Assembly: GCA_963749495.1 (NCBI GenBank)
Contig: CAVVMW010000023.1
Location: 768,001-832,000 of the forward strand
Length of the DNA stretch: 64,000 nucleotides
Direction of reading: 5' to 3'
From: an uncultured bacterium
GTDB taxonomy: Bacteria; Verrucomicrobiota; Verrucomicrobiia; Limisphaerales; UBA8199
In this document: positions 9,862-36,572 of the stretch, one piece after another
How the letters are laid out: each line of letters begins with the position of its first letter
Numbering within the stretch: the stretch's first letter is position 1
Made by a program: the position numbers and the translations under genes
Notes under the pieces: generated by a model
Told to the model about the DNA's origin: nothing
Seen by the model: the letters and a program-made list of their open reading frames with translations, nothing else
The model's database searches: none

Positions 9862-12800
9862 TGGTGTGGTTAATCCTCTCTTTCCTGGAGCTGCTGTGCG
9901 AGCGCCAGGAGTGCCGCACATACGGGCTGACGGGAATTGTGTCGTAGAACAGGGCTGAGGAATTCTCGTAGCTGCTTTTGGATTTTCTGAGCTTGACCAC
10001 GCTGCTCAGGGGAGAGTTGCGCCGTTAGAGCACGATACGCATGGCGTGCCTGGAGGCCTTCGGCTTCGCCGAAGAGAATGCCGACTGACTTGGCATGACT
10101 GGGAAAGGCATCGACTTCAGAGTCCGTCCAGGAATTCAGCGGGGCGTTCGCCACCAACTCAACTACGGATGCTATGCCGGCTTGGTGTGTGGTGGCCTGG
10201 CTGACGCGTTCCAGGAAAGACCGAAGCTCTGTATTTGTCGCGAATGGTTCGATTCGGATCGCTGCCTCCCGGAGAGCTTGCCAACCTTGGGGCTGGGGCG
10301 GGAAACCACATGCTCGCAGGAGATGGTCTTGAGCTTGGCGTAGGGTTGTTGGTGTGACGTCGCGGAGAGCCTGGAGTCTCTCGTTTAGCTTATTGAAAAA
10401 GGAATCGAGCGTGGCGGGGCCGATGCCTTCGTCGGGGATTGGGTTTAGGCCAATCGCTTGTGGCAGCTCGACAAAGAGGAAGTTCTCTGGCGATTTGGCG
10501 CTATTAAATGCCTGCCTGAGGGATTTGACTTCCTGTGGCAGGCGATTTGTGCGCCAAGCCAGTTCCGGGAGAGAGCGAACCATGGAGAAGAGCGCGCGAA
10601 CCACTGGTACGGTGGCAGGTTTGGTACTTAGTCCCTTGGCGAGGCGAGCTACTATTTCACGGCGGGCGCCTTGCACGCGCGTGCCGGCGATTGCGAATAG
10701 TTCGGGGCGACGGAGGACGGTTTCAAAATCGGCGATACCAGGGTTGGGAAGGAACGTGCCCTCACGGTACAAGGTGACTTCATCGGCATGGACGAGCATG
10801 AAGGCGCAAAGGAGTACGGGGTGGAGACCGTCCATGACTCCATGGGGCGGTGCGGCGAGCGAACGGAAGAGCTGGTCGAGAGGCTGGGGTTCGGGCTGGG
10901 GCGTAAAAACCAGGTCAGAAAGCCGCTGCCAAGCCGGGGCTAGGCGAGTGGGATGTCTGTTGGGTGGAGCAGTGAAGTGCCAGGCTCCGGAGTCGTCCTG
11001 AGCGTGGATCCCGGTGGCGTGGAGTACCGATTCGTACATGCTGCGCTCCGGGGGGTAGCCCTCGATTCCGAGAGCGGGATTAGAACCACGCGTAAGCATG
11101 GCCTCAATGAGGTTACGCCGAGCGGCAGCGGCGGCCGAAGATAGAGACCGGCGGACAATCAACTCGTTGCGAATGCGAGGAGCATTGTCGAAGAGCAAAT
11201 TGCAAACCTGGGAAAGCAGTTGCGAAACGTTAACCCGTGACTGGGCCGGCATTTGCACTCCTTGGTAGTACCATACGCATTTGCTGCCAGCGGGGTCATC
11301 GCGGGGATCGAGCAGGCGGTGAACACTTGCCTTCAACAGTTGCTCAGCGTCGGCAATGCGCAGAGCCAACTCCCGCCGGGATACTCGGTCGTCGCGAAGC
11401 TGCGGTGTGTTTTCCCAGACCCACCGCAGAGCGGCGAGTTCGGATGCTGCGGAACGAATTTCACCAATGTCCTGGGGAATGGCTATAAGGAGATTGTCGA
11501 TGCCTGGTTGAAGTGTTTTGACAAGATCCTGGTATTGCTGAACCTGACCCACTGAAGAGGAAAGGCAAACCACGACCTGCCCGTCGGAGTTCGACTTGCC
11601 TGTGGCGCTGCGCTGGAGTTCTTCGACATTATCAACATAGCTGACCGAGAAGAAACGCAAGGCGCCGGTCTCAAAACTATGACGACGCGCAACAAGAGGG
11701 AGAAGTTCCAAATAGCGCGCCAGCGTGGCGGAGAGGCCAAGAGTATGCAGAGTCCTGCGCGAGCCTTCGGCGACCTTCTCGTCGAGGTCCACGTCACTGC
11801 CCTCCCAGATACGGTAGGTTTCGTTGAATTTGCGATAGATGAGGATGGATTGATCCTTGAGCAATGCCAGACCCGTCGCCACCTCGGGACTAGGAGCAAT
11901 GGTATCGGCTAGCGCATAGTGGATGACCAGCTTGCGGGCGCTGAGCGGGCTGAATTCGCCGAGGGCGTTGAGAATGCCGATGCTTTTGACGAGCTTGACC
12001 TGGTGCGGATGAAGGGCGTCCTTTCGATCCAGAACATCGGCCGCCTCCATCCATCGCCGGGCTTGGGGCTGCCGGAACAAGCCCAGACCGAAGTTCTGGG
12101 TGAAGTAATCAAAAAGGTGCTCCAGTCGCACAAAGTGAGGATGCTCAGGGTTTAGCTCGTGGCTCCGAAGGAAGGCTTGGAAGCCAAACGGTTCTAGGCT
12201 GCTCAGGTAGGAGAAAAGACTGCGCTCGTTTTGGGCAAAGCGGCGGAACAGAAACGGCAAGGCGACCAGAGTGCAAGGATGCAACGGATAGGCGGCCAGT
12301 GCCGTGGCCTCAAAGTCGTCCCGGCGCATTCCAGAGGGGATGATTCCGCACTCCCCGCCGAGCTGGACGATGGCTGTGATCTTCCTGCGCAGCGTTTCGT
12401 CGTGTGATTGGGCCTTCCAGCGAATCGCCGACGCGATCATGCGGATCACTTGGTCGGCTGGCTCAAGAAAAGCCACGTCCTCGTAGCGTCCCTGTATTTT
12501 TGCCCATTCCCTACGGGATACCATGTCGAGATGCTGGCCATAGTCCTCGAAGGATTGGTGGAGGAGCCCAAGGAGGAGAAGCGGTTTATCGGCGCTTCGA
12601 GAAGCCTGCTCGGCAAGCTGCTGCAAGAGAAAAACGTCGGCCTTGTTCGGACTGCGGGCGGCGAACTCGAAGAGCTTGCCAAACTCGTCAATGAGCAGGA
12701 GCACACCGGAATAGCCGGCATGGATCGCAGTCGAATTAACCTCAACCAGGGCGCCAACCACGGCGGCACTGTCGAGGAAGTTGTCTCGCTGAGCCTGGCG

Positions 12801-13186
12801 GAGCAGATGGCCAAGGTTTCTGGCGGCAGATTGGAACTGACGCCCCGGTGCTAGAGAAACAGCGGCGGAGGTACCTTGGAGAATGCAGACGGACGTGGCG
12901 GCCCGGCGGGCAGTGATCAAGATGGGGAAAAAGCCCTTCCTTGATTCTTCGAACGCCTTTACTCCGAGCAACCGGCTAGCGAGGGCGGGGTCCACGCCTT
13001 GAAGTTGATGGCGTGCGGTAGTAGTGGATTCACCGGTGGGGCAGAACAGGCGAGTCAGGAAAACAGCGAAGGCGGATTTTCCGACACCGTAAGGGCCGGT
13101 GATGGTCCAGGCTCGATAAGGGGAATTGTCGCGGAGACCTTCAGCCACCCGATTGAGGACCTGGCGGGCGGTGGGAGTGACGATGT

Positions 13187-15371
13187 CACGGCTTCGGCGG
13201 ATCATTGCGTAAGTTGTTGCTGATCAATTGGATATAACGTGGGACTGGACAAAGCCCCCCGAGGCTGCCAAACTCGGCGGCATGATTTGTCCTGCACAGA
13301 TAAAACGGACCTCCAAACCTGAGGACCTCGTCACCCAAATCCTCCGAGAGACCACCGATAAGACGATCACCGTCGAGTTGGTCAAGAGCCTTGAGGAGGA
13401 AGCTCGGTGGAACAAACTGATCCGAAAACACCATTACCTCAAAGAGCATCGCATGGTCGGCGAGTCGCTTCGCTATGTGATCAAGAAAAAGGGGCGATGG
13501 ATCGGCCTGTTGGGTTGGTCCAGCGCCGCCTTCCATCTGCGGCCCCGCGATGCCTGGATCGGCTGGACCGACGCTCAGCGACAGGCCGGACGCCACCTGC
13601 TGGCCTGCAACGCTCGCTTCGCGCTGCTTAGGCCCAAAGGCCGCTCGCCCAACCTGGCTTCCCACTGCCTGAGCCTCAACCTCCAGCGCCTCAGTGCCGA
13701 CTGGCTGGAACACTACGGCCACCCCATCGCCTTGGTCGAAACCTATGTGGACCCCAAACGGTTCGAAGGCACCTGTTATCGTGCCGCCAATTGGTTTGAA
13801 ATCGGCGTGACCAAAGGCTGGGGACGCTCCCGCCTGGATTTCTATCAACTCCACCAGCAGCCCAAAGCCATCTTCGTGTATCCGCTGGTCCGCAACGCCC
13901 GCCAGATCCTCTCGGCTCCGCTCATGCCGGCAGCTTGGGCGCCCTATCGCCGAGAGCCCCCGCCTCAGGAATATCCTTTGAGCGGAAAACAAACCCAAAG
14001 CTTGCTCCACGCCCTGGCCCCACTCCACGACCCCCGCCGCTACCGGGGTTGGCGCCATCGCCGCGTCGCCTCCATTGTGGCCATTGCTGCCGCCGCGATG
14101 ATTGCGGGCAACAACTCCCTGATCGATATCGGCGAGTTCTCCCAGTCCCTCAACCAAAACCAACTCCGCAGCCTGCGCGCCTGCCGTTGCCGCAAGACCC
14201 GCAAGTTCATCCCTCCCAGCGAAACGACCATCCGCCGAATCCTCCAGCGCCTGGACCCGACAGAATTGGACAGGCTGATCAACGATTGGCTGCGCTCCCA
14301 CCTCAAGAACGCGGGCATCGCCGCACTGGCCGTCGATGGCAAATGTGCCCGCACCGCCACCAAAATCAACGGACAAGGCATCCAACTCTTCGGCGCCCTG
14401 GACACCCAAACCCAACTCTTTTGCCGCCAAATCCAAATCCCGGCCAAGACCAATGAAATACCCACCCTCAAGGACCTGCTCCGGGACTTGGACCTGCGCG
14501 GCACCTTGGTCAGCGCCGACGCGCTCAATACTCAGACCGCCACCGCCGACCATGTGGTCGAGGAAAAAAAGGCCGACTACCTCCTGGTCGTCAAAGCCAA
14601 TCAACCCAAGCTCTTCGACAAACTGGCCCGCCTGTCTCACGCGCCGAAAGGCGTTTTTTCCCCCTGAGCACATCACGATTGACCAAGGCCATGGACGGCA
14701 TGAAACCCGCGAGGTCTGGCCCTTTGAAGTCACACCCCAACAGTGCGGCTTCCCACACGCCCTCCAAGCCGCCGTCATCGTGCGCACTACTCACCATCTC
14801 AAAGCCGTTCGCGTTACCGAAGAGGCCGAACTGGTCTTGAGCAGCCGCCCCAATGCGCAGATGGATGCGGCGCAATTGCAGGCCTTTCGCCGTGGCCATT
14901 GGAGCATCGAGTCGGTCCACTACGTGCGCGATGTCACTTTCGGCGAAGATGCTTGCACCGTCCGCACCGGCCACGGCCCGCAAAACCTGGGTGCCTTGCG
15001 CAACCTGGTCATCGGCCTCTGTGCCCTGGATGCTGCCCGCCAGCACAAAGCCACCTCCTATCTGCCACGCTTTCGCTGTGCCGCCAGGAACAATCGCCGC
15101 TTGGCCATCGACCTGGTCGGTCGTCCTCTGCTCAATAACACCTGATGGGGTGCTCCCCTGAGTCTGAGCATCGGTTCGGCTCTGATCGGTCTGGTCTCTC
15201 TGCATGCCGGACGTTTCTATGGCTTCCCACATTGCTGCCCGGATCTGAGCAAATCCTTCCTATAACAGCCTGGCAATTGACAGTGCGCGAGCCGTTGTGG
15301 CGACAAGATCCTCGCCTGCGCTCACGCCCCGATTCCACCCGACAAGGGCCGTTCTAAACGCCGAAGCCGTG
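13187..15371 (+). mobile_element. ISAs1-family insertion sequence, 2185 bp
   Basis: Perfect 13-bp IRs CACGGCTTCGGCG (13187-13199) and CGCCGAAGCCGTG (15359-15371). 10-bp TSD GTGACGATGT at 13177-13186 and 15372-15381. Confidence 0.95.
13228..15145 (+). CDS. DUF4338 + ISAs1 DDE transposase, in two frames joined at GTTTTTTCCCCCTGA (~14653-14667)
   Basis: HHYL, NARF, ETYVD and GTCYRAANW (DUF4338). DPR, AVDGK, KTNEIP, ADALNTQ, VKANQP, GHGRHETR and HWSIE..HYVRDVTFGED (ISAs1). Confidence 0.9.
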
Positions 15372-15498
15372 GTGACGATGTAGTCGCCATTTCGTTGGCC
15401 GCCAGCGTAGTCCTTTTCGAGATTGACCGATCGCAGAAAGCGGGCGCGGACCTGAACACAATCAGAGAGGGTTTGGCAGGGGGCTGGTTTCATCGGGC

Positions 15499-16425
15499 CT
15501 ACGTTCGGTAGTGGCTTTCGAGAAGCCGCATGGAGTCGAGTTTTTGGCGCCGATAGATCTGCTTGAGCCCGGCCGTTTCGTCAAGCGCGATAACGCCTCC
15601 GGTCATGTCCTCGATGGCCTCGATGTACTCAACGAGGCTGTTTTCATCCAGCTTGAAGGCTTGCCCGGGGCTTTCGATGCCGTATAAGCACTCCTGAACG
15701 CTCATGGGATTGCGCTCGGACTTGCTTCTGGCGAAATACTCGTCCAGCGCAACGACAAAAACGGCGGCAGGGAGTGACGGTTTGGGGCCAATGGCAAAGC
15801 GGAAAAACTCGCCGTCCGGGGATGCCTGCATGAGGCCGAGTTCCTGGAGTGGACAATCAAAGGTCTCTTCGGCGACTTCAGGACGAGTCCCATTGCGCAC
15901 CGGCAGATACGTTCTGAGGAGGCAATCAATGTCGCGGGCGAGCGACGATTCGCGGACTCGGATCGAGTGCTTTTCGGCAAACGACTTCACGAAATCAACC
16001 AGTTCGCGCTTTGAAAAATCAGGCCGGTGGAAGTGGCCAAAAGCCAGTTGCCAGCTCGTGCCAATGGTCGGATTAGAGACCAGCAGCCAATGAACGAGCC
16101 ACAGCGAAGCGTCGTTCTCCAGGAACGGGTCCCATCCTCCCTTCAACAAGAGCCGTTTTGCGAGGGTGGAGGGTTGAAAGACGCGCTTAGTGGCGTCTTC
16201 GGGGGCGGGTTTCTCCTCGAGCATCTGGGTCGCCAAACACCAATGGCGGATGCTCTCAACCATATTCTTGCCCACGCCCAAATGAACAATGGCGTCCTCG
16301 GCCGAGAAGATGTCCGGGGATTCAGCGGCTGACTTCACACCTTTCTCGATCCAGCCGTAGCGGAAGGCGAACGTCTGGTGGCCTGAGAACTTCATCTTTT
16401 TTGCAGCTCCGGACATCTCGGACAT
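15499..16425 (-). CDS. sspB: DUF4007 family protein, SspB-like
   Basis: FSGHQTFAFRYGWIEKG, LGVGKNMVESIRHW, WDPFLE...LWLVHW, CPLQELGL, SPGQAFKL and ETAGLKQ. First gene of the operon. Confidence 0.9.
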   Translation of the reverse strand: MSEMSGAAKKMKFSGHQTFAFRYGWIEKGVKSAAESPDIFSAEDAIVHLGVGKNMVESIRHWCLATQMLEEKPAPEDATKRVFQPSTLAKRLLLKGGWDPFLENDASLWLVHWLLVSNPTIGTSWQLAFGHFHRPDFSKRELVDFVKSFAEKHSIRVRESSLARDIDCLLRTYLPVRNGTRPEVAEETFDCPLQELGLMQASPDGEFFRFAIGPKPSLPAAVFVVALDEYFARSKSERNPMSVQECLYGIESPGQAFKLDENSLVEYIEAIEDMTGGVIALDETAGLKQIYRRQKLDSMRLLESHYRT

Positions 16426-16953
16426 ATTGATACTTGCGAAAATCGCGCCGTTCCATGCAGATTGCCGTTCAACAGACCAATGCCCCTGCGAACTTGTATA
16501 CGGCTCATGTTGTATGCTGAATCGCAGGGTTCTGCAATTCTTTTGCGATTGGAGCTTCTGGAGAGCCGGGTGCGCTTATTCAGGCCGAAGAGGGCGGCGT
16601 GAATGGATATTGCCAGGGTCGGTGATCGGGTGGCCCGGGGTGGCCCCGGCACGGGCAGGCATATGCGCATGGCGACGGCTTCCTATGGCTGGGCGCTTGG
16701 GGCGGTCCGTTCGGCATCGCAGCGAAGCTGGGCGCCGTCGAGCAACGTCCGGCTCATGAGCCTGGACATGGAAAGTGAGGCCAAATACGCCGGTTTTCTT
16801 TCAGGGTAAGCAAGGGGCCGAGGCGTTTCCCCCTTTACTGCTCTTGGAACCGTTTTCTGGCACGCCGACTGCTTTCATCAACCGATTTACGGAGGTTTTT
16901 TCGCCGGGTGTCGTAGGGCAAGCCGTCCAGCCACAGACTATCTGCCAGAGCCG

Positions 16954-21091: not shown

Positions 21092-22528
21092 TCAGGTCCG
21101 ACACGGCAACACCGCCCGATCTCCCCGCGCGAGAATTGATTTCGATGAACTGCTACAGTGCAGGCATGTCGCACTGGCTTTGCAATCAGCCGACATCCAA
21201 CGGCGCTCGCGGCAGAAATGCATGCTGTAACCTCTTCGCGCGGACTTGCTGAACAGACCGGAGTAGCCGAGAAGAAAATCGTTCGCCGCCTGCGCTGCGG
21301 CAACAGCGTTCAGCGTTATGACGCTGGGCGCAAACACCAGTTCATCGTCCACGTACGCTTGTCGTTGGCGTTCCCGCTCCGTGAACGCTTCTTGTTGCAG
21401 CTTGGCGGCAGAGATAAGCCCGTTGCAAAGCAGACAGCCGCCGCCGGCATGAGGCAACACGGGTCGCGAAACCGCGAAGATTTCACCGATTTCGCCGGTT
21501 TCCTTGTCAACGGGAACCTTCGAACCGACTTGGACGCCCGGGATTTGGTACTGATGCACAAGGGCGTTGAAGACCAATCGAGCTTGTGCAGAGTCGGCGC
21601 AAAGAAAAATGAAATCGGCGTCTTTGAGCAACAACGCAGCGTCGCGTCGCGTGACGTCGTCAACCACCGCACGATAACGGATTCTCGGATTTGCGCGTTT
21701 TGCAACACGCTCTGCGACCTTCACCTTGAACCTCGCCAAGCGGCGGCCCAACCTTTGCATCCCACTCCAGTTCATCATCGAGAGGAACACCCGGGCGTCG
21801 CACGGCCGCGAGCCGACGACGCGCGGTTGGTTGCTCGGATCGAGTTTGTCAAAGTCAATTCCGACAATTTTGCCGATTCCCAGGTGCGCCAGCCATTCGT
21901 TCAGGAGCGAGCCGGCGCCGCCGAGTCCGATGATGCCCACCTTTGCTCGCTTCAGGATTTCCTGACCTCCCGCTCCAAAAATCAGGGACTGGCGGTGATA
22001 AAGTGGAATGGCCGCGATGGGTGACTTCTGTGGTGACGGGTAAAGCCGGCGGATGTTTTGTCCGATGACAACGAGGTTTTCGAGCGGGAACACACCCTCC
22101 ACAGTCCAGATGCTTCCCGCGACGGCTTTACGCGCAAACACGAGCGCGCCGACCGGGCCCCCTCTGGTAATATCCAGCAGCGCCGGGTAGCCGCGACGGT
22201 GCGACTTCACGTCGGCCGTGGAAAAACCCACGAAATCATCTCCCTCGTGACAATGCACGGCGAGGTAGCACAAGTTCTCTTGCGCGCAATGATGCGAAAC
22301 ACGGGCGACGAAATCGGCCGTGAGCGCCCGATAGCCATACTTTCCCGGCACGTAATCAATGCCGTCTTTCGCAACGAAAACCTCGCGGGCAAGCAAGCGC
22401 GCTTCGCGGCCTGATTCGCAAATGCCGGCGGCAATAATCGCTCCGTGCTCGTCAGCGTCGCCGGGGAACAAATGGGACATGAGTTGCTCGAAGAGCGTCT
22501 CCGAAATTCTGAACGTAAATTTCTTCAT
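21092..22528 (-). CDS. JAB peptidase-ThiF/E1 fusion (478 aa)
   Basis: N-terminal EHG...VHCHEG..FSTAD (JAB). GLGGAGS, DFDKLDPSNQPRV, CADS..AR, CLLC and CLHC (ThiF). ATG overlaps the E2 stop. Confidence 0.9.
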   Translation of the reverse strand: MKKFTFRISETLFEQLMSHLFPGDADEHGAIIAAGICESGREARLLAREVFVAKDGIDYVPGKYGYRALTADFVARVSHHCAQENLCYLAVHCHEGDDFVGFSTADVKSHRRGYPALLDITRGGPVGALVFARKAVAGSIWTVEGVFPLENLVVIGQNIRRLYPSPQKSPIAAIPLYHRQSLIFGAGGQEILKRAKVGIIGLGGAGSLLNEWLAHLGIGKIVGIDFDKLDPSNQPRVVGSRPCDARVFLSMMNWSGMQRLGRRLARFKVKVAERVAKRANPRIRYRAVVDDVTRRDAALLLKDADFIFLCADSAQARLVFNALVHQYQIPGVQVGSKVPVDKETGEIGEIFAVSRPVLPHAGGGCLLCNGLISAAKLQQEAFTERERQRQAYVDDELVFAPSVITLNAVAAAQAANDFLLGYSGLFSKSARRGYSMHFCRERRWMSADCKASATCLHCSSSSKSILARGDRAVLPCRT

Positions 22529-22920
22529 TGGCCTCTTATCCAATCCAACACTTTTGCCAGCTTGAGAGCGGCGGTGTCCGTTTCCGGATTCAAACGATTC
22601 GAGCGGCGTGACAGCATGATTGCCGGTTCGGTCGCCTTCGGCGTTCGCCACTGGTTGTTCAGGTTGAACCCGCCGCCGAGCGAACGTCCGTCCTTTCGTT
22701 TCAATGCCGGAATGCAGAAATGCGGATAAATGTCCGCGAACGGATATTGAAACGTGATTGGGAACGCGAGCCACGACACAGACGGCTCGTACTTATCGCC
22801 AAGGATCAGGTCGTGAACCTTGACGTAGGCACCGCCGTCTGTGTCCGGGTCAACGTCCATCTGGCGACGGGGAAATGCGACTCGGATTTCCGCGATCGCT
22901 TGTTGAACCGCGGCTGTCAC
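22525..22920 (-). CDS. E2/UBC-like protein of a bacterial ubiquitin system
   Basis: ITFQYPFADIYPHF and LSRRSNR. Lies between the multi-Ubl and JAB-E1 genes; GTG start at 22920. Confidence 0.7.
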   Translation of the reverse strand: MTAAVQQAIAEIRVAFPRRQMDVDPDTDGGAYVKVHDLILGDKYEPSVSWLAFPITFQYPFADIYPHFCIPALKRKDGRSLGGGFNLNNQWRTPKATEPAIMLSRRSNRLNPETDTAALKLAKVLDWIRGQ

Positions 22921-22922
22921 GG

Positions 22923-23663
22923 CTAGGAGTTGTCGTCGGGCGTGACACAACGGAATTCCTCGCAGTCCCTGAGCGTGACTTTTTCGGAGTCGCCGATGGA
23001 TGCGCCCAGGGTGCCGTCCGGCTTCACTTTGTAGAGAACGCCATCAAGGGTGATTTTTACCTGCTGCGCGATGGCGGTCTGCTTGATTTCGAGACCAGTG
23101 ACCCGCCGTTTGTGGAATGTCACCGGATAATTGTTCACCTTCACCGTGATGGTGACGCGCTCCGTGCGAAACACTGGGCCGTCGGCGAAGTTGGCCGCCT
23201 CGTCATCCGCGATTGGCTCGTCGTGCGGCAACTCGTAGTCACGCAGCAACTCGACTTGCGCTGAAAGCTCGAACAGCCGGCGCAAGGTCGCACCAGTCTG
23301 GCGGGGATCAAGAGTGATTTCCCATTCATCGTCCACCACGAATGCACATTTCGCCGGTTCATGGCATGGCGGTGGCGGCGCGGCTTCGCAGAGCGGGATC
23401 ACTCGGAAGACATTTCCCGCTGCCAGATCGATCTCGGCCTCCTCCGCGACGACCACGTCATTGCGGGATTGATAATCGCGCACCAGCACGAAGCCCGCAC
23501 CGATGCCGGCCTGGTCTTTGATGGTCTGGGCGGTCACGACCCGTCGAGGCATTGAAATCGCCCGATCGTTGACGAGAACCGCCCACTTTGGCGCGGGGCG
23601 GCAATCAGGCGCTTCCTTCGCCAGGGCTTTCTCCTGGCCCATTTGAATTTCCGAATCAGTCAT
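22923..23663 (-). CDS. Multi-ubiquitin domain protein (about three beta-grasp repeats)
   Basis: Repeats VND...VTAQTIK..AG..LVRD; VDD...TGATLRRL..LLRD; VNN...VTGLEIK..A. Ends FRCVTPDDNS. Confidence 0.8.
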   Translation of the reverse strand: MTDSEIQMGQEKALAKEAPDCRPAPKWAVLVNDRAISMPRRVVTAQTIKDQAGIGAGFVLVRDYQSRNDVVVAEEAEIDLAAGNVFRVIPLCEAAPPPPCHEPAKCAFVVDDEWEITLDPRQTGATLRRLFELSAQVELLRDYELPHDEPIADDEAANFADGPVFRTERVTITVKVNNYPVTFHKRRVTGLEIKQTAIAQQVKITLDGVLYKVKPDGTLGASIGDSEKVTLRDCEEFRCVTPDDNS

Positions 23664-23849
23664 AATCATAACTTCGATTTTCTTTGTGTTCTGGACGCCG
23701 CCGAAGTTGTTCATCCGTCTGCGGCGAGCCGTTCCAATAGGGATTGCTGAAAACGCGGCCGACCGTGGGGCAAAGAATTTGCCGTTCTGCGAAAGATTTT
23801 CCCCCAAAGGCCAAGACTTGTTAGCCTGTTACGTGTGAATGGACCAACT

Positions 23850-24437
23850 ATGGACGACAACGCAATGAGCAAGCTGGGTGCGGTGGACTGGGACGATGCC
23901 GCGCCCCGGCTGCTTCAGTTTGCGCGCCGGTGGGCCGCTGGCCTTTACTATTGGTGCGAAGGCACCGCGCTGCCCAACGGGATGGGCATCGAGGACGTCG
24001 TCAAGGATGCCGTGGCGGCGTTCGCGCGCGGTGAACGAAAGTTCAATCCGCGTTTCGAGGTCATGGTCCAGTTGAAGGGCGCAATCCGCAGCATCCTGTG
24101 GAACATCCACAAGCGGAAAGCCGCGGGGTTGACGAGTTCGGAAGCGCCAGCGTTCTTCGAGGCGCAATTGGATGCGGCGCTCGACCCGGCAGCGAAGGCT
24201 GAAAGTGAAGATTTTTGCCGGACGTTGCTGGAAAGCCTCGCGGGCAACCAGCAGGTCCAGGACAGGCCGGAGTTGCTGGCCGTTGTGAAAGCGTATGCAG
24301 GCGGCGCCGAGTCCGTCGAAGAGTTGGTCGAACAAACCGGCCTGCCGGTGCGCCGCATCTACGAACTGCGCCGGCAGATGAGGGAGATCGCCGCTAAGGT
24401 CTTGGGAAGATTGAGCAGAAAGGGAAAAGCGTTATGA
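23850..24437 (+). CDS. ECF/sigma-70-like transcription factor
   Basis: DWD..PRLL.FA, EDVVKDA...GERKF..., IRSILWN (region 2-like) and C-terminal HTH ELVEQTGLPVRRIY. Confidence 0.7.
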   Translation: MDDNAMSKLGAVDWDDAAPRLLQFARRWAAGLYYWCEGTALPNGMGIEDVVKDAVAAFARGERKFNPRFEVMVQLKGAIRSILWNIHKRKAAGLTSSEAPAFFEAQLDAALDPAAKAESEDFCRTLLESLAGNQQVQDRPELLAVVKAYAGGAESVEELVEQTGLPVRRIYELRRQMREIAAKVLGRLSRKGKAL

Positions 24438-24805
24438 GCAAGAGCTATCAGAATGCCGTTGAGCACCTGCATCTGTTTCTGGCCGACACGGAGGGCGAGA
24501 GCCGTGACGAGGTTACGCGTGGATTGCGCGCGGCGGGAGTGGATGTCAACCGATTTATTTCCGACATCAAACGGATTGCCGGGGTGCGAAGCGGGTTTTC
24601 CCGTGTGGGACGGTTCGCAAACAAGACGCGCGCGCAGATTCTGAAGCTGCTCGAAGAATTGCAGCTTGAAACTTCGGGGGCGTTTTCAAACGTCGGCCTG
24701 GCGGCCCGGGAAGGCGGCGGATTGAATCAGTTGTCCGATGAGCAACTTCGAACGTTGCTGGAAAAACTGGAGGCGGAGCGGTCGCACGACGAGTTGAAGG
24801 ACTAA
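24434..24805 (+). CDS. Small partner of the sigma-like factor (anti-sigma candidate), 123 aa
   Basis: ATGA overlap with the sigma-like gene. Helical, ending AAR...LSDEQLRTLLE. Confidence 0.55.
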   Translation: MSKSYQNAVEHLHLFLADTEGESRDEVTRGLRAAGVDVNRFISDIKRIAGVRSGFSRVGRFANKTRAQILKLLEELQLETSGAFSNVGLAAREGGGLNQLSDEQLRTLLEKLEAERSHDELKD

Positions 24806-24835
24806 AGGGAGGTCTCTCGTCGCAAGCACAACAAA

Positions 24836-25831
24836 ATGACTGCCTGGAAGCCCAAACGAAATGGTTGGAACGGGCCAACCTGGTCCGTCAGCCGCAACCA
24901 ACAGCTCCAGACGTGCGAGCGCAAATACTATTTCCAGTATCTCGCTGGCGCACGGGTCAACGCCACCGAACCAATGCAACGGCGGCTCGGGATGCTGAAA
25001 AAGCTCAAAAGCATCCGCATGTGGGAAGGCGACTGTGTGCATTGGGCCGTCGCCCGTTTTCTCGGAGCGGTTCGAGACAAACGCAGTTTGAGCGCCGAAC
25101 AGGCACTGGCTCAGCTGCGGGATAAGATGGAACGTGAGTGGCAATTCTCGGAGCGGAGGTGTTTCCGGACGCAGCCGCTGCTCATTGACAAGGGCGGCTT
25201 GGGTCTGGTGGAGCACGAATACGATAGCGTGCCGGCGGGCGTTACTGCCGACAGTGTGTACGACGATGTCGCGAGTGGATTCCACAAATTCGTCGCGTGG
25301 GCGGACGGCATCTGCGCGAGAATTCGAGTTGCTGACAACGTTTGGATTGAGCCGCCCGTGTTTGGCCCGGAAGCGCCGGGCTTCCCTCTGGACGGCGTTC
25401 AAATCATCGGGAAGGTGGACCTTGCCATCGAGAAGAGCGGTGAGTTCTTTGAGATTTACGACTGGAAGACCGGCGGAGCACCGGTTCAGAAGAGATCCTG
25501 CATCACGCAAAACGAACTCCAGGTTTGCGTGTACCAATTGTGGCCGCATCTCTCGATGCGACTGCCGCTTAGTCTCGTGTCGAGCCAGTTGGTTTATCTG
25601 GGCGGTGAAACGCCGGAAGCCCGCACGCATCGTCTGGATGAAAACTCAGTGCCCCTCGTTGTTCAAATGGTGCGGAACAGCGTCGCGTTGGCAACCCGTT
25701 GGGAAAAGAATTTCGAGAAGGGCCTGTTGCGGCTGAACGATTTGGATTACGCCGCCTGGCCCGGCGCTTGTCGCGAGTGCGCGTTCAAAGCGGTCTGCCG
25801 TGAAAGTTTGCATTATGAAAACGTCGCCTAA
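24836..25831 (+). CDS. Cas4/RecB-like PD-(D/E)XK nuclease with four Cys (probable Fe-S cluster)
   Basis: TCERKYYF, G..VH, GKVDL, IYDWKTG, Q..VY and CRECAFKAVC. Confidence 0.9.
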   Translation: MTAWKPKRNGWNGPTWSVSRNQQLQTCERKYYFQYLAGARVNATEPMQRRLGMLKKLKSIRMWEGDCVHWAVARFLGAVRDKRSLSAEQALAQLRDKMEREWQFSERRCFRTQPLLIDKGGLGLVEHEYDSVPAGVTADSVYDDVASGFHKFVAWADGICARIRVADNVWIEPPVFGPEAPGFPLDGVQIIGKVDLAIEKSGEFFEIYDWKTGGAPVQKRSCITQNELQVCVYQLWPHLSMRLPLSLVSSQLVYLGGETPEARTHRLDENSVPLVVQMVRNSVALATRWEKNFEKGLLRLNDLDYAAWPGACRECAFKAVCRESLHYENVA

Positions 25832-28214
25832 CCGAAAGCTGCTGGCGGCGTCTCTGTTTGCCATCAGCGGGCTGCAGGGACTGCCGTTCAAGTTGCGTGT
25901 GCTGCGCGTCGTCAATGCGCTGCCGAATGACAATTATCGTCCCATTCGCCTGCAGGGATGGGCCGACAACCTCTGGCATGACGTGCTGAAGTGCCCGGTG
26001 TTTCCGACATCGCGCTTTGACTTTCCGGGGTTCATCGTTCCGGCCGACGCGGCCGCGGAAGTCGGTCAGGTGATTTCCTTGCCTGGTGTAGCAGATAAAG
26101 AGTTCCGCATCGAGGTCACTGATCGCGTTTTGGAAATCGATCCGAAACAGGCGCGGCCGGAGGAGCGCGACTTGGCGGGCAAGATGATTGAGCGCGTCAT
26201 CAGCGACCGTCTCAGCTCGCTCAAGTCGAAATTCTGGCGGACTGAATGGACGCTTTATTTCCACCTGCTTCCCGAGAACGAGCGGGAAGCACGTGACCGC
26301 GTCAACGCCTATCGCGGGTTCAAATTCGGCGTCGTGTTGCTGGAAACCGGCGAGCTTCTGTTGGCCGGCGACATTCGCACGAAATACATCGGGCGTCGCT
26401 CGCTTGCTCAATACGATCAGGTGGAGCGCGAACTCGTATTGGCTCGGCATCTGGACCTCGAAGTTGACATCGAAGACCGCGCCACGTTTGTGCGTGACAA
26501 CGGCTCGGCGAAATATTCGTGCCGCTACGCCGGGCCGACGGGACAATCCATCAGCGAGTATCGCATCAAAGAATTGAACCAGACTGTGCTGGACTTCTAC
26601 GTCAAGAACTATCCCCGACTCCGCCTCGATCCGAATGATGCGGCTGTATTCTTCGACAGCGGCGGGAAGAAGAAAGACATGGCTGCGCCGGCGTCACGAA
26701 TGTTTCCGGTGTTTACCACCGAGGATGAGAGTTTGCGCGAGTGCTCGATCAAACCCCAGATGACCCCCGAAGCGCGAGTTCAGGAAATCCATTCGTTCCT
26801 GGGCGAGCTCGCGGGATTGAATTACGCGGGACGGGACCTCAGCATCGATCGCGAACTCGTTACGCGCGAGCGCAGCATTTTTCTTCCGCCGAAACTTGAA
26901 TACGGCAAGGGCAACATTCTTGCACCGTATCCGCAGAACGGCAGGGCCGGCGCTGTATTACCCGATCTTGAAAAAGCGATTGCCGACTGGCGATTCAGCA
27001 AAATGCCAATGCTTTATCGGCACGGGCCGTATTTCAATGAGCCGCTGCCGGACGTGGTGTTCTTCTACCCTGATGGATTGCCTCGCGATATACGCGAAAG
27101 ATTTCTGGAGCAACTCGACCTGGAAATCCTCAAACAGACCGGATCGAAGATGAACGTCATCGCGCGCCGCTCGTACCGAATCGGACAAGCCGAGCGGAGC
27201 GGCGCGTCGCTGCTCGCAACCATCAAAACAGTTATTGGCGAACAGCCCGGAATGTTCCTGGCACTCGTCGCTCTGTGGGATCGTTTCCTTGACAGCGTGC
27301 ATCCGAATTTGAAGGACGCGGTGAAAGGCCGCCCTTCGCAATGTGTCACCGAGCGGGTGCTGCGGACGATTGCGAATACTACCGACCCGATGCGCGCCAC
27401 AGGGCGCGTCCGAAACCTCGCGCTTGGCGTTTTGATTGCCGCAGGCGTGCAACCCTGGGTCTTGTCGGAAGAACTGCACCACGACGTTTACATCGGCATC
27501 AACACTCTGCATGGCCGGGTCAGTTATCATTTTCTTTTCGGCAAGGGTGGTCGCCAGGTTTTGACCTCGCTCGGAGCGTCCATTAAGCGGGGACGAACAC
27601 AAGAGTCGCTGGACAAAGTGGAACTTCGGACAAGAATCGAGTCCACTGTTCGCGAGATTCATCAGGCCGGCCATCCGCTTCGCAGCGTGGTCGTCCATCG
27701 CGACGGACGCTGGTGGAAGCGTGAAAGTCAGGCGCTCAACGAAGCGGCCTCGAATTTGGTTCGCGACAAGATTCTGGCAAAGGATTGCGCCATCGGGGTG
27801 GTCGAAATCCGCAAGAGCCATTTTCCCGTCCGGCTGTTCACGAAAGTTGGGCCGCCGGCAAATCAGCTGCTGAATCCGCTTCCCGGCACTCACTTGGTGC
27901 TCGATCAGCAACGCGCTTTGCTTTCGACGACGGGCAGACCCGGCGCATGGGACAAGAGCGAAGGGCGAACCGCGGGAACGCTTCTGCTGAATCTCATCGA
28001 GAGTTCCCCGCCGATGGACATCGAGGCTTTGGCGGAAGACGCTTACCGGCTCACGCATCTAAATTGGAGTGCGCCCGAGATTGAAATTTCCGTCCCGGTC
28101 ACGATTCGGTGGAACGACGATGCGCTGCGGGCTTCGCTCGTTAGCCAGCAGCAGGAGGAAGATGAAACTTACGACGAGACGAACGAACTTAAGATGGAAG
28201 GAGCGAACGTATGA
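25815..28214 (+). CDS. Long prokaryotic Argonaute (799 aa), catalytic tetrad apparently incomplete
   Basis: MID motifs HPNLK and PSQCV. PIWI motifs G..PW.L, YIGIN, VVHRDG, VEIRKS, YRLTHLNW and PVTI. N-terminal YRGF and PAZ-like TVLDFY. Confidence 0.9.
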   Translation: MKTSPNRKLLAASLFAISGLQGLPFKLRVLRVVNALPNDNYRPIRLQGWADNLWHDVLKCPVFPTSRFDFPGFIVPADAAAEVGQVISLPGVADKEFRIEVTDRVLEIDPKQARPEERDLAGKMIERVISDRLSSLKSKFWRTEWTLYFHLLPENEREARDRVNAYRGFKFGVVLLETGELLLAGDIRTKYIGRRSLAQYDQVERELVLARHLDLEVDIEDRATFVRDNGSAKYSCRYAGPTGQSISEYRIKELNQTVLDFYVKNYPRLRLDPNDAAVFFDSGGKKKDMAAPASRMFPVFTTEDESLRECSIKPQMTPEARVQEIHSFLGELAGLNYAGRDLSIDRELVTRERSIFLPPKLEYGKGNILAPYPQNGRAGAVLPDLEKAIADWRFSKMPMLYRHGPYFNEPLPDVVFFYPDGLPRDIRERFLEQLDLEILKQTGSKMNVIARRSYRIGQAERSGASLLATIKTVIGEQPGMFLALVALWDRFLDSVHPNLKDAVKGRPSQCVTERVLRTIANTTDPMRATGRVRNLALGVLIAAGVQPWVLSEELHHDVYIGINTLHGRVSYHFLFGKGGRQVLTSLGASIKRGRTQESLDKVELRTRIESTVREIHQAGHPLRSVVVHRDGRWWKRESQALNEAASNLVRDKILAKDCAIGVVEIRKSHFPVRLFTKVGPPANQLLNPLPGTHLVLDQQRALLSTTGRPGAWDKSEGRTAGTLLLNLIESSPPMDIEALAEDAYRLTHLNWSAPEIEISVPVTIRWNDDALRASLVSQQQEEDETYDETNELKMEGANV

Positions 28215-28621
28215 GTCTATTGGGATTCATGTCCGTCAAGTTGGACAAGCAGCAAACGTTGCTGGAACGGCTCAACGAGGCGCTGCTCATGGTTCAAAGC
28301 GAATCGCTGGGCCGGGCCGCCGACCTCGGCTTCACGTCGGCGCAAATTGCCGCGGCGAAGGAAACGCTGCGCGAGTTCGTCAATCGCTTGCGGACAAAAC
28401 TGGCGGGCAACCAGGACAACGAAGAATTGAACGTCCTGGTGGCGCGAATTCGCGAAGGCCAGTTCGAGCTGAATGAATGGCTGGAGGAATTAGCGCAACT
28501 CGAAACGCAGTTGGCGCAACCCGGGCTGCTGCCGCTGACGGCCATTCCCACGCTGGAAGGAGTTTTGGCGATACTGGATGAAGAACTGACTGCCGAATTC
28601 AACCGGCTTTATTCGCGATAA
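28211..28621 (+). CDS. Alpha-helical hypothetical protein (136 aa)
   Basis: ATGA overlap with the pAgo gene, GGAG RBS upstream, Leu/Glu-rich amphipathic helices. Confidence 0.75.
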   Translation: MSLLGFMSVKLDKQQTLLERLNEALLMVQSESLGRAADLGFTSAQIAAAKETLREFVNRLRTKLAGNQDNEELNVLVARIREGQFELNEWLEELAQLETQLAQPGLLPLTAIPTLEGVLAILDEELTAEFNRLYSR

Positions 28622-28636
28622 GCACAAGGATGGGGC

Positions 28637-29788
28637 ATGCCTTCATACCGGATCGCCAAGACGGCGGAATTGGATATACTCTTCGATTGGCTGGAGGATC
28701 AACTCCGCCAGCTGCGGCAGACCAATCCTGACCATCGCGTCGTCCTTGATTATCTCGACCAGCAATACACCCAGGCCGAGAACAAGCTTGCGCTCCTCCA
28801 GGCTTTGCTGGCGCTCAAAGACCCGAACCTCGACAAACGCGCCGACAGGCTGGCTCACGACTTGTCTCGCCACGTTATTCCGACGGCGAACCACTATATC
28901 GCGGGTCTGCAGCGGCAAGGCCCGCAGGACCGGCGAGTAAGGCAGGTGCTGCTGCGTCTGTGCCAGCGGCTCCGGTTGGATTGGATTGAAGACATCCTGG
29001 TCTGCTTGCTGCGGGATTTGGCATTGCTGGCTGAATACCGCGGAATCTTCGCCATCCCGGTGTTCTACGGCCCGCCGCATCTGCTGGAGACAATTCTCGA
29101 AGTCCCCGGAATTTATCACGAATTCGGTCATAGCGTCTTCGCGAGGGATGACGTGTTCCTTCGCGAAATGTCCTCAATCGTGAAGCGCCATTTCGTCCAA
29201 CTGAAACAACAGGCCGGCCCGATTCCACCGGTGCAGAAGGCGCTCCGCGACCAGGAACTCGACCGTGCCGCCAACTCCTGGAGTGCGCTGTGGTTGGCCG
29301 AGGTTTTCGGCGACCTCTTCGCGGGATATGTTTGCGGGCCGGCCAATCTGGCTTCGATGGTGGACCTGGGCCGCGCTCAAGGTTTTCCTCCCTACCTGCT
29401 CGCCTCAAACTCACACCCGCCAAACTGCGCTCGCGTCCTGGTTTCCTATTTCGCCCTCTCCGACCAGCAACGTCAGCATCCAACCGTGCAAAAAATCCAC
29501 GACGCATGGCAGCATTTTGCCCGGGGATTTACACCCGGCCAGGATTATAAGTTGCGTTGTGCTGAGGATCTCTTGAGGTCGGTGGCCAACGCGGTCAATG
29601 CCCTCATCGCGCAACACCTGCCAAATATTCCTCGGTACACAAAGATGCCTCCTGATCTGGCATCGGCGCGGGCTGTGAAAGCCGGTATCGCCCTTGAAGA
29701 CCTTATCAATGCCGGGGTGACGATTCTCTTTGAAGCGCCGGCTGAATTTTCTGCCTGGCAGCAATCCTCTCGCCTGCTGATCGCGTGA
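28637..29788 (+). CDS. HEXXH zincin-like metallopeptidase-fold protein (383 aa)
   Basis: IYHEFGHS, downstream WLAEVFGDLFA..CGPA and SHPP..AR. Confidence 0.75.
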   Translation: MPSYRIAKTAELDILFDWLEDQLRQLRQTNPDHRVVLDYLDQQYTQAENKLALLQALLALKDPNLDKRADRLAHDLSRHVIPTANHYIAGLQRQGPQDRRVRQVLLRLCQRLRLDWIEDILVCLLRDLALLAEYRGIFAIPVFYGPPHLLETILEVPGIYHEFGHSVFARDDVFLREMSSIVKRHFVQLKQQAGPIPPVQKALRDQELDRAANSWSALWLAEVFGDLFAGYVCGPANLASMVDLGRAQGFPPYLLASNSHPPNCARVLVSYFALSDQQRQHPTVQKIHDAWQHFARGFTPGQDYKLRCAEDLLRSVANAVNALIAQHLPNIPRYTKMPPDLASARAVKAGIALEDLINAGVTILFEAPAEFSAWQQSSRLLIA

Positions 29789-31482: not shown

Positions 31483-33239
31483 ATGCGTTCAAGCCCTGTC
31501 CGAGTTCCTCGCGGCCATCCGCGAGGGCGCACCCGAGGCCCAGGGTCTCAACGGACCGCTGACCGCTTATTAGCGACGCCGCTGCCGCACCTGCACCCGG
31601 CGGTTCCCGGCCGTTTGAAAGTGCGCGAGCACGAATACTCGGCGGCGCTCGTGTACTCCCACCTGACCCAATTGGGCTGGGTGCAGTCCTTGCCCAAAGA
31701 CAGCATCTTGGCTGGGGCCGCGCGATGCCTCACTGGGCGAGTAGCCCGGTATCGGCAGCGGCGGCTCCCGCTGGAGTTTTGCCTCGCCACCAATCTCCAG
31801 CATCTGCCACTCGGCGGGGAGGCCGGCGACGCCGCCATTGTGGTGAGCGTACCCGACACGCAACTGATCGAGTTGCAGCAGCCAATCCAACGTTTGGAGA
31901 AGAAGCACCCGCAGGCGGGTCGTTTCGTTTGGAGCGCGTTGCATCGCGGGTTGGGCTCCTGGGGGAGTACTGTTCGCCTCAGTGCCTGCTTTATCTTCTG
32001 TCGATGTATTACTGGCAGGGCGAAGAGAATGAGGAGCAAGCTCTAAAAGATCTCAAGGCGCAGGGAGAGGACATCTCCCAAGTCGAAATGATCCGGCGGG
32101 CCGACGTTGAGCGGCAATTCCCGAAATGGGTAATCGGCTTGGAAAAGGAACCGGCCAAACCGCCCGCCCGGTTGCGCCAACTGCCCTTCCACGGGGCGGT
32201 AACGAGGCTGACCGCCTTTCGACGCGATCAGTTCCCGGAGAATTGGATCGAGAGCCGCAGCCTCCCCATCGTTTACATCCCCTGGGAAGGCACGGTCTTG
32301 GCCCAGGCGACAGACGAGCACTTCGAGGCGCTCAATCAGGAATACGAAACCGCCCAGTGGGTGTTCCGGTTCAACCCGCGCTCCCTGGAATCGTTCGAGC
32401 TGGCCTGGACACAATTCGAACTTTACCTCGAGGTTCTCCATGCAGTGGAAGACGTGCTTGACGGTCTGCTGGGCGCTGCCGAACCCCGCCCGGTGACCAT
32501 CGGCGTCCCCAAGGAGGAGCCCAGCGAACTGTCCGCAACGCACGCGTTGCTCCTTTACAGCGGCGGGAGCAACAGTAGCAGGGCCATTGTGACCACGCAC
32601 TCCATCGCCAGGGCACCCGGACGTTACGTGCTCCTACCCGGAAAACCGGCCAGCGCCGCAGCCTTGTTCCAGTTGCTGGCCCGGTTCAATCCCAATATTG
32701 CGTACCAGGGGATTCTGCCTGAAAACCTGCTGCGGCACACGCCCGCTGAACTGTTGTGGCACTGCCCGAGCCGGATCGAGCCAATCTTTTTCAAAACAAA
32801 CCAGGAGGAACTCAACGCCATCAGCGGCGCCCGCGTGGTCCACCCGCACCTGGCGTTTTATGTAAATCAAGGCAGCCTCTTTGTTGCCGCCCTGCCGGAC
32901 GACCAGCGCCCGAGCCTGCAAACAAAGCTCTTCCGCGCGCCCTATTTCAACGTCAGCCCGGAAGGCAGAGTATGCCAGGGAAGCATGAAAGGCCCGCGCG
33001 AAAACCGGCCCGAGAGTCTGCCCCAGTGGGAGCACGCCTTTTTTCACTCGGCCTTCACGCATCCCCATGGGGGCGCCTATCGCATCACGTCACACCCAGA
33101 CGGTCATGCGGCGCTCTGGCTGGCGCAGGCAAAGAAGCCGTATCCGAAATTCCCGATCCAGCACCTGGTGCCACTCGAGATGACCTTGGGCGATTGGTTA
33201 AAAGACTGTGCCGAATTCAAGTCTGGTTGGCGCCCGTGA
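31483..33239 (+). CDS. PRTRC protein F running into protein B (E2 family D); frameshift near 31960
   Basis: F-like LEKKHP and YYWQGE.NEE. B-like LPENLL, HPHLAF, LFRAPYFNV..EGRVCQG and WE.AFF.SAFTHP. Confidence 0.75.
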
Positions 33240-36411: not shown

Positions 36412-36572
36412 CTGGTTTGTGTATTGTCCTGGACAGCTCTGCGCTGGCCACAATGTTCTCGCCCGCCGGGTCTCAAATCGTCTCTGCTGACAACGAAAAC
36501 GGCGACAGACCTGAATCCTCCGCCGGTTCGGTGAAAAGCCTGTGAATACCCTGCAAACAACCCTGCGAACAA

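Follow-up and report, generated by a model that had tools for sequence, protein, structure and literature searches.

A ubiquitin-like conjugation operon and an Argonaute operon are the two arms of a conserved defence cassette with its own sigma-factor-like switch

In the genome of an uncultured bacterium (GTDB lineage Bacteria; Verrucomicrobiota; Verrucomicrobiia; Limisphaerales; UBA8199), an operon for ubiquitin-like (Ubl) protein conjugation stands head-to-head with an operon that encodes a prokaryotic Argonaute (pAgo), and the two share a single short intergenic region. Do these two systems adjoin each other by chance, or do they belong together? We addressed this question in a window of 64,000 nucleotides (NCBI GenBank assembly GCA_963749495.1, contig CAVVMW010000023.1, positions 768,001 to 832,000 of the forward strand), to which all coordinates refer unless another locus is named. 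The initial annotation of the window described coupled Ubl, E2-like and JAB-E1 genes on the minus strand that diverge from a sigma-like gene leading the pAgo operon, and both this description and its coordinates are correct (Table 1). Comparison with related loci now shows that the Ubl operon and the Argonaute operon are the two arms of a conserved, mobile defence cassette with its own sigma-factor-like switch. The Argonaute arm consists of six tightly packed plus-strand genes; the sigma-like gene comes first, followed by genes for a protein of 123 amino acids (aa), a nuclease, the pAgo, a 136-aa protein and a protein with an HEXXH motif. The partner arm resembles the bacterial Bub operons.

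A two-armed block with an exchangeable partner

Searching from the pAgo side, we recovered 26 genome loci with related pAgos. Ten of these carry the sigma-like gene, the 123-aa gene and a divergent Ubl/JAB-E1 arm together, and 12 carry neither these regulator genes nor the arm; three are cut at the flank, and the last, L010, has a canonical BubAB–BubCD–DUF6527 operon behind an XRE regulator. A search from the side of the sigma-like gene yielded 36 metagenome loci, many of them on short contigs, with at least 350 nt of left flank in 29 and at least 300 nt of right flank in 31. On the left, a divergent Ubl gene is present in 23 of the 29, genes of a cyclic-oligonucleotide-based anti-phage signalling system (CBASS) in two and unknown genes in three, and the remaining locus, L064, is rearranged. 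On the right, all 31 run into the 123-aa gene, the nuclease and pAgo genes, or both; the 123-aa gene is present in 30 of them, and L069 has the nuclease and pAgo genes without it. The adjacency of the two arms is kept down to ~41% pAgo identity. Because the arrangement recurs in both collections, chance clustering, by which the operons would be adjacent only in this genome, is rejected.

The boundaries of the block emerge from the same comparison. Of 25 window open reading frames (ORFs) outside the interval from the JAB-E1 gene to the HEXXH gene, none recurs beside the block in any locus, including the relatives with 87–92% pAgo identity, the one exception in this search being an aminotransferase match at an unrelated place in L012. 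The flanks therefore change even among close relatives while the block is kept, which identifies positions 21092–29788 as the unit that is inherited or moved. Bub operons themselves are rare, as a sample of 401 genomes from the phylum contains the window's JAB-E1 type in five (E ≤1e-20) and the fused type described below in one (E ≤1e-30). In the rearranged L064, the left side of the sigma-like gene is occupied by an integrase gene and a DUF6088/AbiEi-like gene. A Bub operon of the window's type is found at the other end of this locus, convergent on the HEXXH gene with a 12-nt overlap, and its JAB-E1 is 59% identical to that of the window (L064:6044–8135, 14085–16660).

Table 1. Positions of the genes and control elements of the two-armed block in the window
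Feature	Position	Strand	Remarks
JAB-E1 fusion (BubCD-like)	21092-22528	-	478 aa; ATG overlaps the TGA of the E2-like gene as ATGA
E2-like protein (BubB-like)	22525-22920	-	131 aa; GTG start 2 nt past the TAG of the Ubl gene
Multi-Ubl protein (BubA-like)	22923-23663	-	246 aa; likely ATG at 23663, chosen by comparison with L002
Intergenic region between the arms	23664-23849	.	186 nt
Degenerate inverted motif copy facing the Ubl arm	23741-23782	-	rank 7 of 127,918 window positions, score 0.9
Bipartite promoter-like motif	23789-23830	+	ATTTTCCCCCAAA, 11-nt gap, TAGCCT-like -10 box; ends ~20 nt before the sigma-like start
ECF-sigma-like protein	23850-24437	+	195 aa; stop overlaps the start of the 123-aa gene
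123-aa protein, predicted anti-sigma-like binder	24434-24805	+	from complex prediction
Cas4-like PD-(D/E)XK nuclease	24836-25831	+	331 aa; Pfam PDDEXK_1, PADLOC
VbAgo-type long pAgo	25815-28214	+	799 aa; PADLOC pAgo_II
136-aa core-cassette protein	28211-28621	+	conserved, family-less
HEXXH protein (HEFGH), putative zinc metalloprotease	28637-29788	+	383 aa; core cassette

The partner arm is exchanged among these loci. A quick tree of JAB-E1 proteins resolves three deep lineages, namely canonical, split (that of the window) and fused-BubAB, which are separated by branches of 2.5–3.1 changes per column, and all three are found beside this pAgo cassette. The window JAB-E1 is 58–70% identical to more than 100 clusters among the matches listed (3231 matches overall) and shares just ~27% identity with the JAB-E1 in the majority of other loci linked to a pAgo; fused-type JAB-E1 proteins number ~450. 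Each lineage also occurs as a stand-alone operon within the phylum sample: the split type in genome G048, behind an XRE regulator; the fused type in G300; and the canonical type, with BubE, in G144, G060 and G282. A fourth Bub architecture adjoins the pAgo in Opitutaceae-like loci (L014:2029–4377, L023:5562–7910), in which the arm comprises a 231-aa Ubl, a separate JAB protein of ~160–260 aa (HxH...S..D) and a short 272-aa E1, with no recognisable E2; it may be an E2-less conjugation variant. In the two loci with CBASS genes, the slot holds a cyclase (CD-NTase; E 3.4e-113, L045:83–1237, minus strand) or a patatin effector (E 2.4e-34, L044:1–396, minus strand), on contigs of 1.5–2.2 kb that are too short to show whether Cap2/Cap3 follow. 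Since the slot accepts four Bub architectures as well as CBASS, the link is not tied to a single clade of Ubl operon, a feature that the initial annotation missed.

In a quick, midpoint-rooted pAgo tree with SH-aLRT support only, the window clade has a fused-type locus as its sister, both sides of the root include fused types, and the sigma-less loci group in one clade. The tree of sigma-like proteins, also a quick one, places both the CBASS-partnered pair and the window's split-Bub clade among fused-Bub partners, nested in a clade with 98% support. The simplest reading of these trees is that a conserved sigma/pAgo backbone has had its divergent arm replaced several times. Two of the loci (L002, L019) come from metagenome-assembled genomes labelled Bifidobacteriaceae/Bifidobacterium; in every tree they stand closest to Verrucomicrobiota, which makes these bin labels look unreliable.

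The shared control region and the regulator pair

The spacer between the arms measures 157–181 nt in 30 distinct relatives, and all 30 intergenic regions contain a bipartite element, ATTTTTCCCAAAA followed after an 11-nt gap by TAGCCTA, which ends ~20 nt before the sigma-like start. A position weight matrix trained on a set that excluded the window's clade gives the window's copy a score of 30.3, whereas the second-ranked of 127,918 window positions gets 4.6. With a gapped version of the motif, the window site scores 27.8, higher than any other of the 22.7 million positions in the 11.4-Mb genome, and no other reaches 25; 26 positions reach at least 18. These genome-wide numbers lead us to reject the motif as the organism's general promoter. 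A scan for the sigma-70 consensus found no match in the intergenic region and two in 10 kb, against 2.7 expected.

In most relatives, a second, inverted copy of the element lies ~75 nt before the Ubl start. Its score is reached by at most one of 200 shuffled sequences in 20 of the 30 regions, and by at most five of 200 in 25 of the 30. Both copies in the CBASS-partnered loci score 21.5–22.1, above all 100 shuffles. Upstream of the stand-alone fused Bub operon of G300, no such motif was found. At the stand-alone Bub locus of G048 (L035), motif-like matches occur at 15963–15997 on the minus strand and 10912–10948 on the plus strand; one of them scores 25.6, above all 100 shuffles, and the other, a borderline 19.8, stands just upstream of the Ubl gene. 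No sigma-like gene lies near this Bub locus, and its adjoining 199-aa ORF is not sigma-like (hhalign probability 0.2%).

The first protein of the Argonaute arm resembles an extracytoplasmic function (ECF) sigma factor in its predicted fold. In an AlphaFold2 (AF2) model (pLDDT 77), residues 1–94 match the sigma2 domain of M. tuberculosis SigH (VIA Z 7.3, root-mean-square deviation (rmsd) 3.1, 81 residues), and residues 114–193 match a sigma4 domain (VIA Z 8.2, rmsd 3.1, 75 residues). Sigma factors make up most of the top 50 VIA rows, and the top Foldseek rows are ECF sigma factors with E values of 0.18–1; a comparison with NCBIfam returned nothing. We favor the sigma-like reading because both domains match one family in the right order.

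For the 123-aa protein, modelling predicts binding to the sigma-like protein in the manner of an anti-sigma factor. The predicted complex of the two scores 0.80, against 0.01 for the best control; the mark used for such scores is reached by 116 of 157 solved complexes and by two of 215 mismatched pairs. In this model, residues 3–51 of the 123-aa protein contact both the sigma2-like part (6–59) and the sigma4-like part (116–181) of its partner, at least 82% of contacts are common to the runs, and the 123-aa partner has a pLDDT of 67 or more. The 123-aa protein is conserved over its first 50 residues, and its sequence contains no visible membrane segment, CHAT domain or zinc motif. As far as these models go, they support the sigma/anti-sigma pair that had been suggested for this locus.

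A related arrangement is described in Myxococcus xanthus, where the ECF sigma factor DdvS and the transmembrane anti-sigma factor DdvA control a CBASS–CRISPR-Cas island (PMC11506125). The two cases would have in common a dedicated sigma factor and its binder within a multi-system defence locus, an anti-sigma factor that contacts both sigma2 and sigma4 (predicted here) and CBASS among the modules. They differ in that the 123-aa partner is apparently small and soluble, that the sigma-like protein has no Pfam sigma match and that the modules are an Argonaute cassette and a Bub operon.

The genes of the two arms and their surroundings

Judged by sequence and predicted fold, the minus-strand operon is a variant of Type I Bub, trimmed and split; its multi-Ubl is BubA-like, its serine E2 BubB-like and its JAB-E1 BubCD-like, and BubE is missing. 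Type I Bub is the renamed 6E.1/DUF6527 system (BubAB, BubCD and BubE; Citrobacter sp.; Ye, Gong, Chambers & Corbett, bioRxiv 2024, PMC11601596), and a combination of polyUbl, a cysteine-less E2/RWD-like domain and JAB-E1 forms row 6e of Iyer, Burroughs & Aravind 2006 (PMC1779556). As described, the BubAB fusion is cut after a conserved glycine, its Ubl has one to three beta-grasp domains, and BubE (DUF6527) is a serine protease; the oxyester chemistry of the system involves Y370 in the crossover loop of BubCD, with no catalytic cysteine, and S333, H335 and D299 of BubB (PMC11601596).

The JAB-E1 protein has a Pfam ThiF match (E 2.8e-26) and aligns to Citrobacter BubCD (9ea4_A) in a phmmer search of PDB sequences (E 8.4e-24, residues 9–419 to 12–399); NCBIfam gave just ThiF/MoeB matches below the cut-off. 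The alignment to BubCD contains the JAMM Glu, the HxH...S..D motif, the adenylation Arg and a Tyr matching Y370. This last correspondence needs a 2-residue offset in chain numbering, and the protein also has CxxC-type cysteines there and near its C-terminus, which may be structural zinc ligands. The last domain of the multi-Ubl protein matches Pfam Multi_ubiq (E 3.1e-11, above the cut-off), and relatives with 37–81% identity occupy the equivalent position in other loci. Its C-terminus reads ...PDDNS, with no glycine; the equivalent place in fused BubAB relatives is a VGG/FE junction (alignment by eye).

When the E2-like and multi-Ubl proteins were compared with PDB chains by sequence, nothing useful was returned (best E 0.25 and 0.065, respectively), so the identity of the E2 was resolved by fold alone. 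Its family comprises 219 representatives, 65 of which were used for an AF2 model (pLDDT 97.8). The best PDB fold for this model is Citrobacter BubB (9eae_C, E 8.3e-5, TM 0.71, rmsd 3.0 over 125 columns), followed by the E2 domain of Cap2 and by eukaryotic E2s. Five residues (P60, Y65, P66, S104 and K120) do not vary among the 65 members, and D63 is almost invariant. In place of the S-x-H of BubB, the E2 has S-R-R, which puts an Arg at the position of BubB His335 (residue equivalence by eye), and hhalign gives a weak match between window-type E2 and the Prok-E2_E parts of fused BubAB (probability 6.8%, E 0.005). The longest ORF for the E2 starts from a TTG at 22950 and would overlap the Ubl gene by 28 nt. 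BubE/DUF6527 (PF20137) has no match in the whole genome, which is 88% complete, and a control Caulobacter genome was matched; likewise, the BubE of L010 as a tblastn query found none in any sigma-linked locus.

The minus-strand arm therefore has features on both sides of a comparison with Type I Bub. Alike are the full-length BubCD homology, BubB as the best fold, a Multi_ubiq Ubl and the gene order Ubl–E2–JAB-E1, and the Tyr at the Y370 position together with the invariant Ser of the E2 would fit oxyester chemistry. Unlike Type I Bub, the arm has separate genes for Ubl and E2, a Ubl end without a glycine to expose, Arg for His in the E2 and no DUF6527/BubE, which together mark it as a Bub-like variant and not a canonical member. 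Its regulator also differs, being a sigma-like protein shared with the Argonaute operon and not CapW, CapH/CapP or CapK/CapS.

The Argonaute of the plus-strand arm (PADLOC pAgo_II, E 1.3e-56) belongs to a clade that we gathered as 40 clusters; a profile built from 22 of its members finds VbAgo (9v65_A) with E 5.8e-287 (positions 5–785 to 2–775). VbAgo, the pAgo of a Verrucomicrobia bacterium, uses DNA guides to cleave RNA and has the catalytic tetrad D550, E584, D617 and D756 (PMC10448046; PMC13219720; PDB 9v65), and its D550A/D617A variant is described as having lost activity. On a Verrucomicrobia contig, the pAgo of L018 matches three short VbAgo motifs and the VbAgo N-terminus, so the studied VbAgo appears to come from this cassette family; the L018 contig ends inside the sigma-like gene, and any partner arm would lie beyond the contig. 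A term search of the available text of the two VbAgo papers (PMC10448046; PMC13219720) found no mention of operon context, ubiquitin or Cas4.

Scored on its three Asp columns, the tetrad keeps its third and fourth Asp in all 35 aligned pAgos and its first in 34, so that the three checked Asp residues are shared with VbAgo by 34 of 35 members. The remaining sequence is the window pAgo itself, which has Asn at this position (residue 563, codon 27501–27503), whereas relatives 87–92% identical to it keep the Asp. The D563N substitution may permit target binding without slicing, or it may be an assembly error. A further difference from VbAgo as described is that the pAgo here stands within a six-gene arm with a partner operon.

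The nuclease (Pfam PDDEXK_1, E 4.1e-25; PADLOC Aga_Cas4-like_Nuc, E 6.8e-23) adjoins the pAgo gene in related loci. Systems of a long-B pAgo and a nuclease are said to have been named BPAN by Song and co-workers in 2023. The cassette resembles these systems (PADLOC class II) in that pAgo_II and Aga_Cas4-like_Nuc are the best models and the nuclease gene directly precedes that of the pAgo. Long-B pAgos have been described as catalytically inactive (Ryazansky 2018, PMC6299218), whereas this clade keeps the tetrad Asp residues and its member VbAgo is an active slicer (PMC10448046). Also unlike PADLOC class II, the core has two extra conserved genes that lie outside PADLOC, those for the 136-aa and HEXXH proteins.

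Together with the nuclease and the pAgo, these two proteins make up a four-gene core, defined on the 26 genome loci, whose hosts include Verrucomicrobiota, Cyanobacteriota, Chloroflexota, Gemmatimonadota, Nitrososphaerota and an Asgard archaeon. The 136-aa protein, encoded next after the pAgo in related loci, has no Pfam, PADLOC or NCBIfam match. In the HEXXH protein, H161, E162, G164, H165, E222 and D226 are invariant across 21 sequences. It has no sequence relative in the PDB and no Pfam match (E up to 1) common to more than two of the 21 members, and a protein atlas gives a weak lead to Peptidase_U49/M48 (0.78–0.79). On one cyanobacterial contig (L027), a nuclease gene fragment (407–949) and the pAgo (6088–7518) lie ~5 kb apart, which suggests an insertion into the core cassette.

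Upstream of the block, an Ssp-type DNA phosphorothioation system occupies positions 8179–16425 on the minus strand, with SspB and SspC within 9870–16425. Besides SspB/DUF4007 (E 6.7e-93) and SspC (PADLOC E 0), this region encodes a class-V aminotransferase, a PAPS-reductase-like protein and an unknown protein of 533 aa. The two-armed block thus sits in a defence island. A second ubiquitination-like pair begins 2 kb past the HEXXH gene (31725–34024, plus strand), where a 504-aa Prok-E2_D protein (E 1.1e-31) is overlapped by a 422-aa ThiF/E1 ORF in another frame; the pair could be a frameshifted E2–E1 fusion or two overlapping genes. Just past the island, positions 36088–36972 of the minus strand encode a 294-aa protein with a C-terminal RRM_1 domain of the eukaryotic type (E 1.3e-21).

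Explanations for the linkage

The most likely purpose of the linkage is transcriptional. We consider it probable, with considerable room for doubt, that a dedicated sigma-like factor, restrained by its small partner, drives both arms from twin promoters and thereby co-induces the Bub and pAgo genes. The sigma-like factor would be held off by the 123-aa partner; once released, it would read the bipartite promoter ahead of its own Argonaute operon and also the second, diverging promoter ahead of the partner arm. The Argonaute cassette would in this way be induced together with an exchangeable second immune module, a Bub lineage or CBASS. Our comparison shows the gene identities, the conserved linkage with its block boundaries, the exchange of the partner arm and the conservation of the motif; we infer three links of the chain, namely a promoter function for the motif, its recognition by the sigma-like protein and inhibition of that protein by the 123-aa partner. 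That both arms may form one co-regulated unit, as the initial annotation had proposed, agrees with the comparison, in which the arms remain adjacent at low pAgo identity, L064 keeps its Bub operon, the flanks change, and the motif is present in all 30 distinct intergenic regions, with an inverted copy in most; in the window, however, the second motif copy is weak.

Several points weigh against co-induction by a sigma-like factor. The scores behind the sigma assignment are middling: no Pfam sigma family (Sigma70_r2/Sigma70_r4) matches the protein at E up to 0.01, HTH_28 alone appears at 0.0021, below the cut-off, and helical proteins may reach Z 7.3–8.2 by chance. The motif is unlike the usual promoter consensus of ECF sigma factors. 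The complex score may reflect likeness to solved sigma/anti-sigma complexes; anti-sigma factors classically contact both halves, so the prediction may in part reproduce those known structures. In the window, the second motif copy is not significant and is not singled out by the gapped scan, in which 21 of 200 shuffles reach the best minus-strand score. The loci are kin, some of them near-duplicates, so their counts are not independent events, and both scans used patterns from this clade, which makes them blind to distant sigma-like genes without pAgo. Finally, Asn replaces the first tetrad Asp in the window pAgo, the ...DDNS end of the Ubl contains no glycine, and the E2 has Arg at BubB His335 (an equivalence drawn by eye, with a weak hhalign match). 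Given the glycine-less Ubl and the Arg of the E2, the conjugation competence of the window's Ubl copy is unproven on sequence grounds, and the window copy may be partly defective, as the pAgo D563N substitution, the glycine-less Ubl and the weak second motif would suggest.

The initial annotation had suggested that Argonaute sensing is linked to protein conjugation through a sigma/anti-sigma switch cut by the HEXXH protein. Spelled out, such a sensor and switch would have the pAgo recognise invader RNA by means of its guide and thereby activate the HEXXH protease; this would cut the 123-aa anti-sigma-like protein, and the freed sigma-like factor would then turn on the Bub or CBASS arm as a second line of defence. 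This mechanism would account for the presence of a Bub arm in 10 of the 10 sigma-carrying genome loci and in none of the 12 sigma-less ones, and it has the HEXXH protein, with its invariant HExGH...E signature, encoded in the same operon. It also has precedents, as regulated anti-sigma proteolysis is established biology and DdvA is proposed to be processed in this way (PMC11506125), and CapH/CapP, a repressor with a metalloprotease, controls many Bub operons (PMC11601596). We nevertheless judge it unlikely. The HEXXH and 136-aa proteins belong to the core of the 12 loci without a sigma-like or 123-aa gene (in cyanobacteria, Chloroflexota, archaea and others), so the primary substrate of the HEXXH protein cannot be the 123-aa protein. 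Moreover, the motif also precedes the sigma-like/pAgo arm, which fits simple co-induction equally well, and the window pAgo has Asn in place of a catalytic Asp, although target binding might survive. The full two-tier immune circuit, with a DNA-guided, RNA-recognising Argonaute cassette as a sequence-specific sensor, an anti-sigma factor destroyed by the HEXXH protein and a sigma factor that launches an interchangeable Bub/CBASS effector operon, is in our view just as unlikely; if true, a transcriptional switch would for the first time be seen to respond to target recognition by an Argonaute, and Bub would gain a trigger.

The arms could instead be coupled after translation, the Bub enzymes attaching the multi-Ubl to, or removing it from, one of the Argonaute-arm proteins and so tuning its activity, much as Cap2/Cap3 act on the CBASS cyclase; candidate targets would be the pAgo, the nuclease, the 136-aa protein and the anti-sigma-like protein. 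E1/E2/JAB modules are accessory regulators in Type II CBASS (PMC11601596), the arms in the slot carry Ubl, JAB and E1 or are CBASS operons, and the adjacency is tight and conserved. However, all three Bub lineages also stand alone without pAgo and so need no Argonaute target, and a specific enzyme–substrate pair would hardly tolerate the swapping of differing arms, one of them without a recognisable E2, on one backbone; we find such coupling improbable, more so than the sensor and switch. The least probable explanation, in our estimate, is that the linkage has no function and that two independent systems share a defence island or an integration hot spot. The arms adjoin without an intervening gene across a spacer held at 157–181 nt, with a conserved motif, to ~41% pAgo identity; the block is kept where the flanks of close relatives vary; and, among the genome loci, presence of the sigma-like gene coincides exactly with that of a divergent arm. 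Rare as Bub operons are (5 and 1 of the 401 genomes for the two types), four of their architectures occur beside one pAgo clade, and L064 keeps its Bub operon after rearrangement. These observations outweigh the facts that the window is a defence island with Ssp genes and a second E2/E1 pair, that each Bub lineage stands alone elsewhere and the pAgo core does so in 12 loci, and that the slot can hold CBASS.

The separate pieces of the cassette are already known from published work, namely Bub operons and their regulators (PMC11601596; PMC13373217), VbAgo, and an ECF sigma/anti-sigma pair on a CBASS–CRISPR island (PMC11506125). We found no text in the literature that links an Argonaute with Bub or ubiquitin-like operons or with a sigma factor, and supplements (Table S1 of Ye et al.; CapK/CapS Dataset EV1) could list such neighbours. 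Term searches, which also covered the Bub paper (PMC11601596) and showed no such link there, gave 0 matches for ubiquitin, ThiF, sigma and peptidase in Ryazansky et al. 2018 (PMC6299218) and 0 for Argonaute in the CapK/CapS paper (PMC13373217).

Bub has been characterised biochemically, and its authors found no Bub operon that protected E. coli (PMC11601596). No trigger, target or phenotype is known for Bub at present, and the cassette offers a testable promoter and regulator. It would also provide a second example beside the single described defence island under sigma/anti-sigma control. VbAgo, which has been studied as an RNA-cutting tool, gains four to five conserved partner proteins, and the substitution of Bub and CBASS for each other in one slot amounts to a natural experiment.

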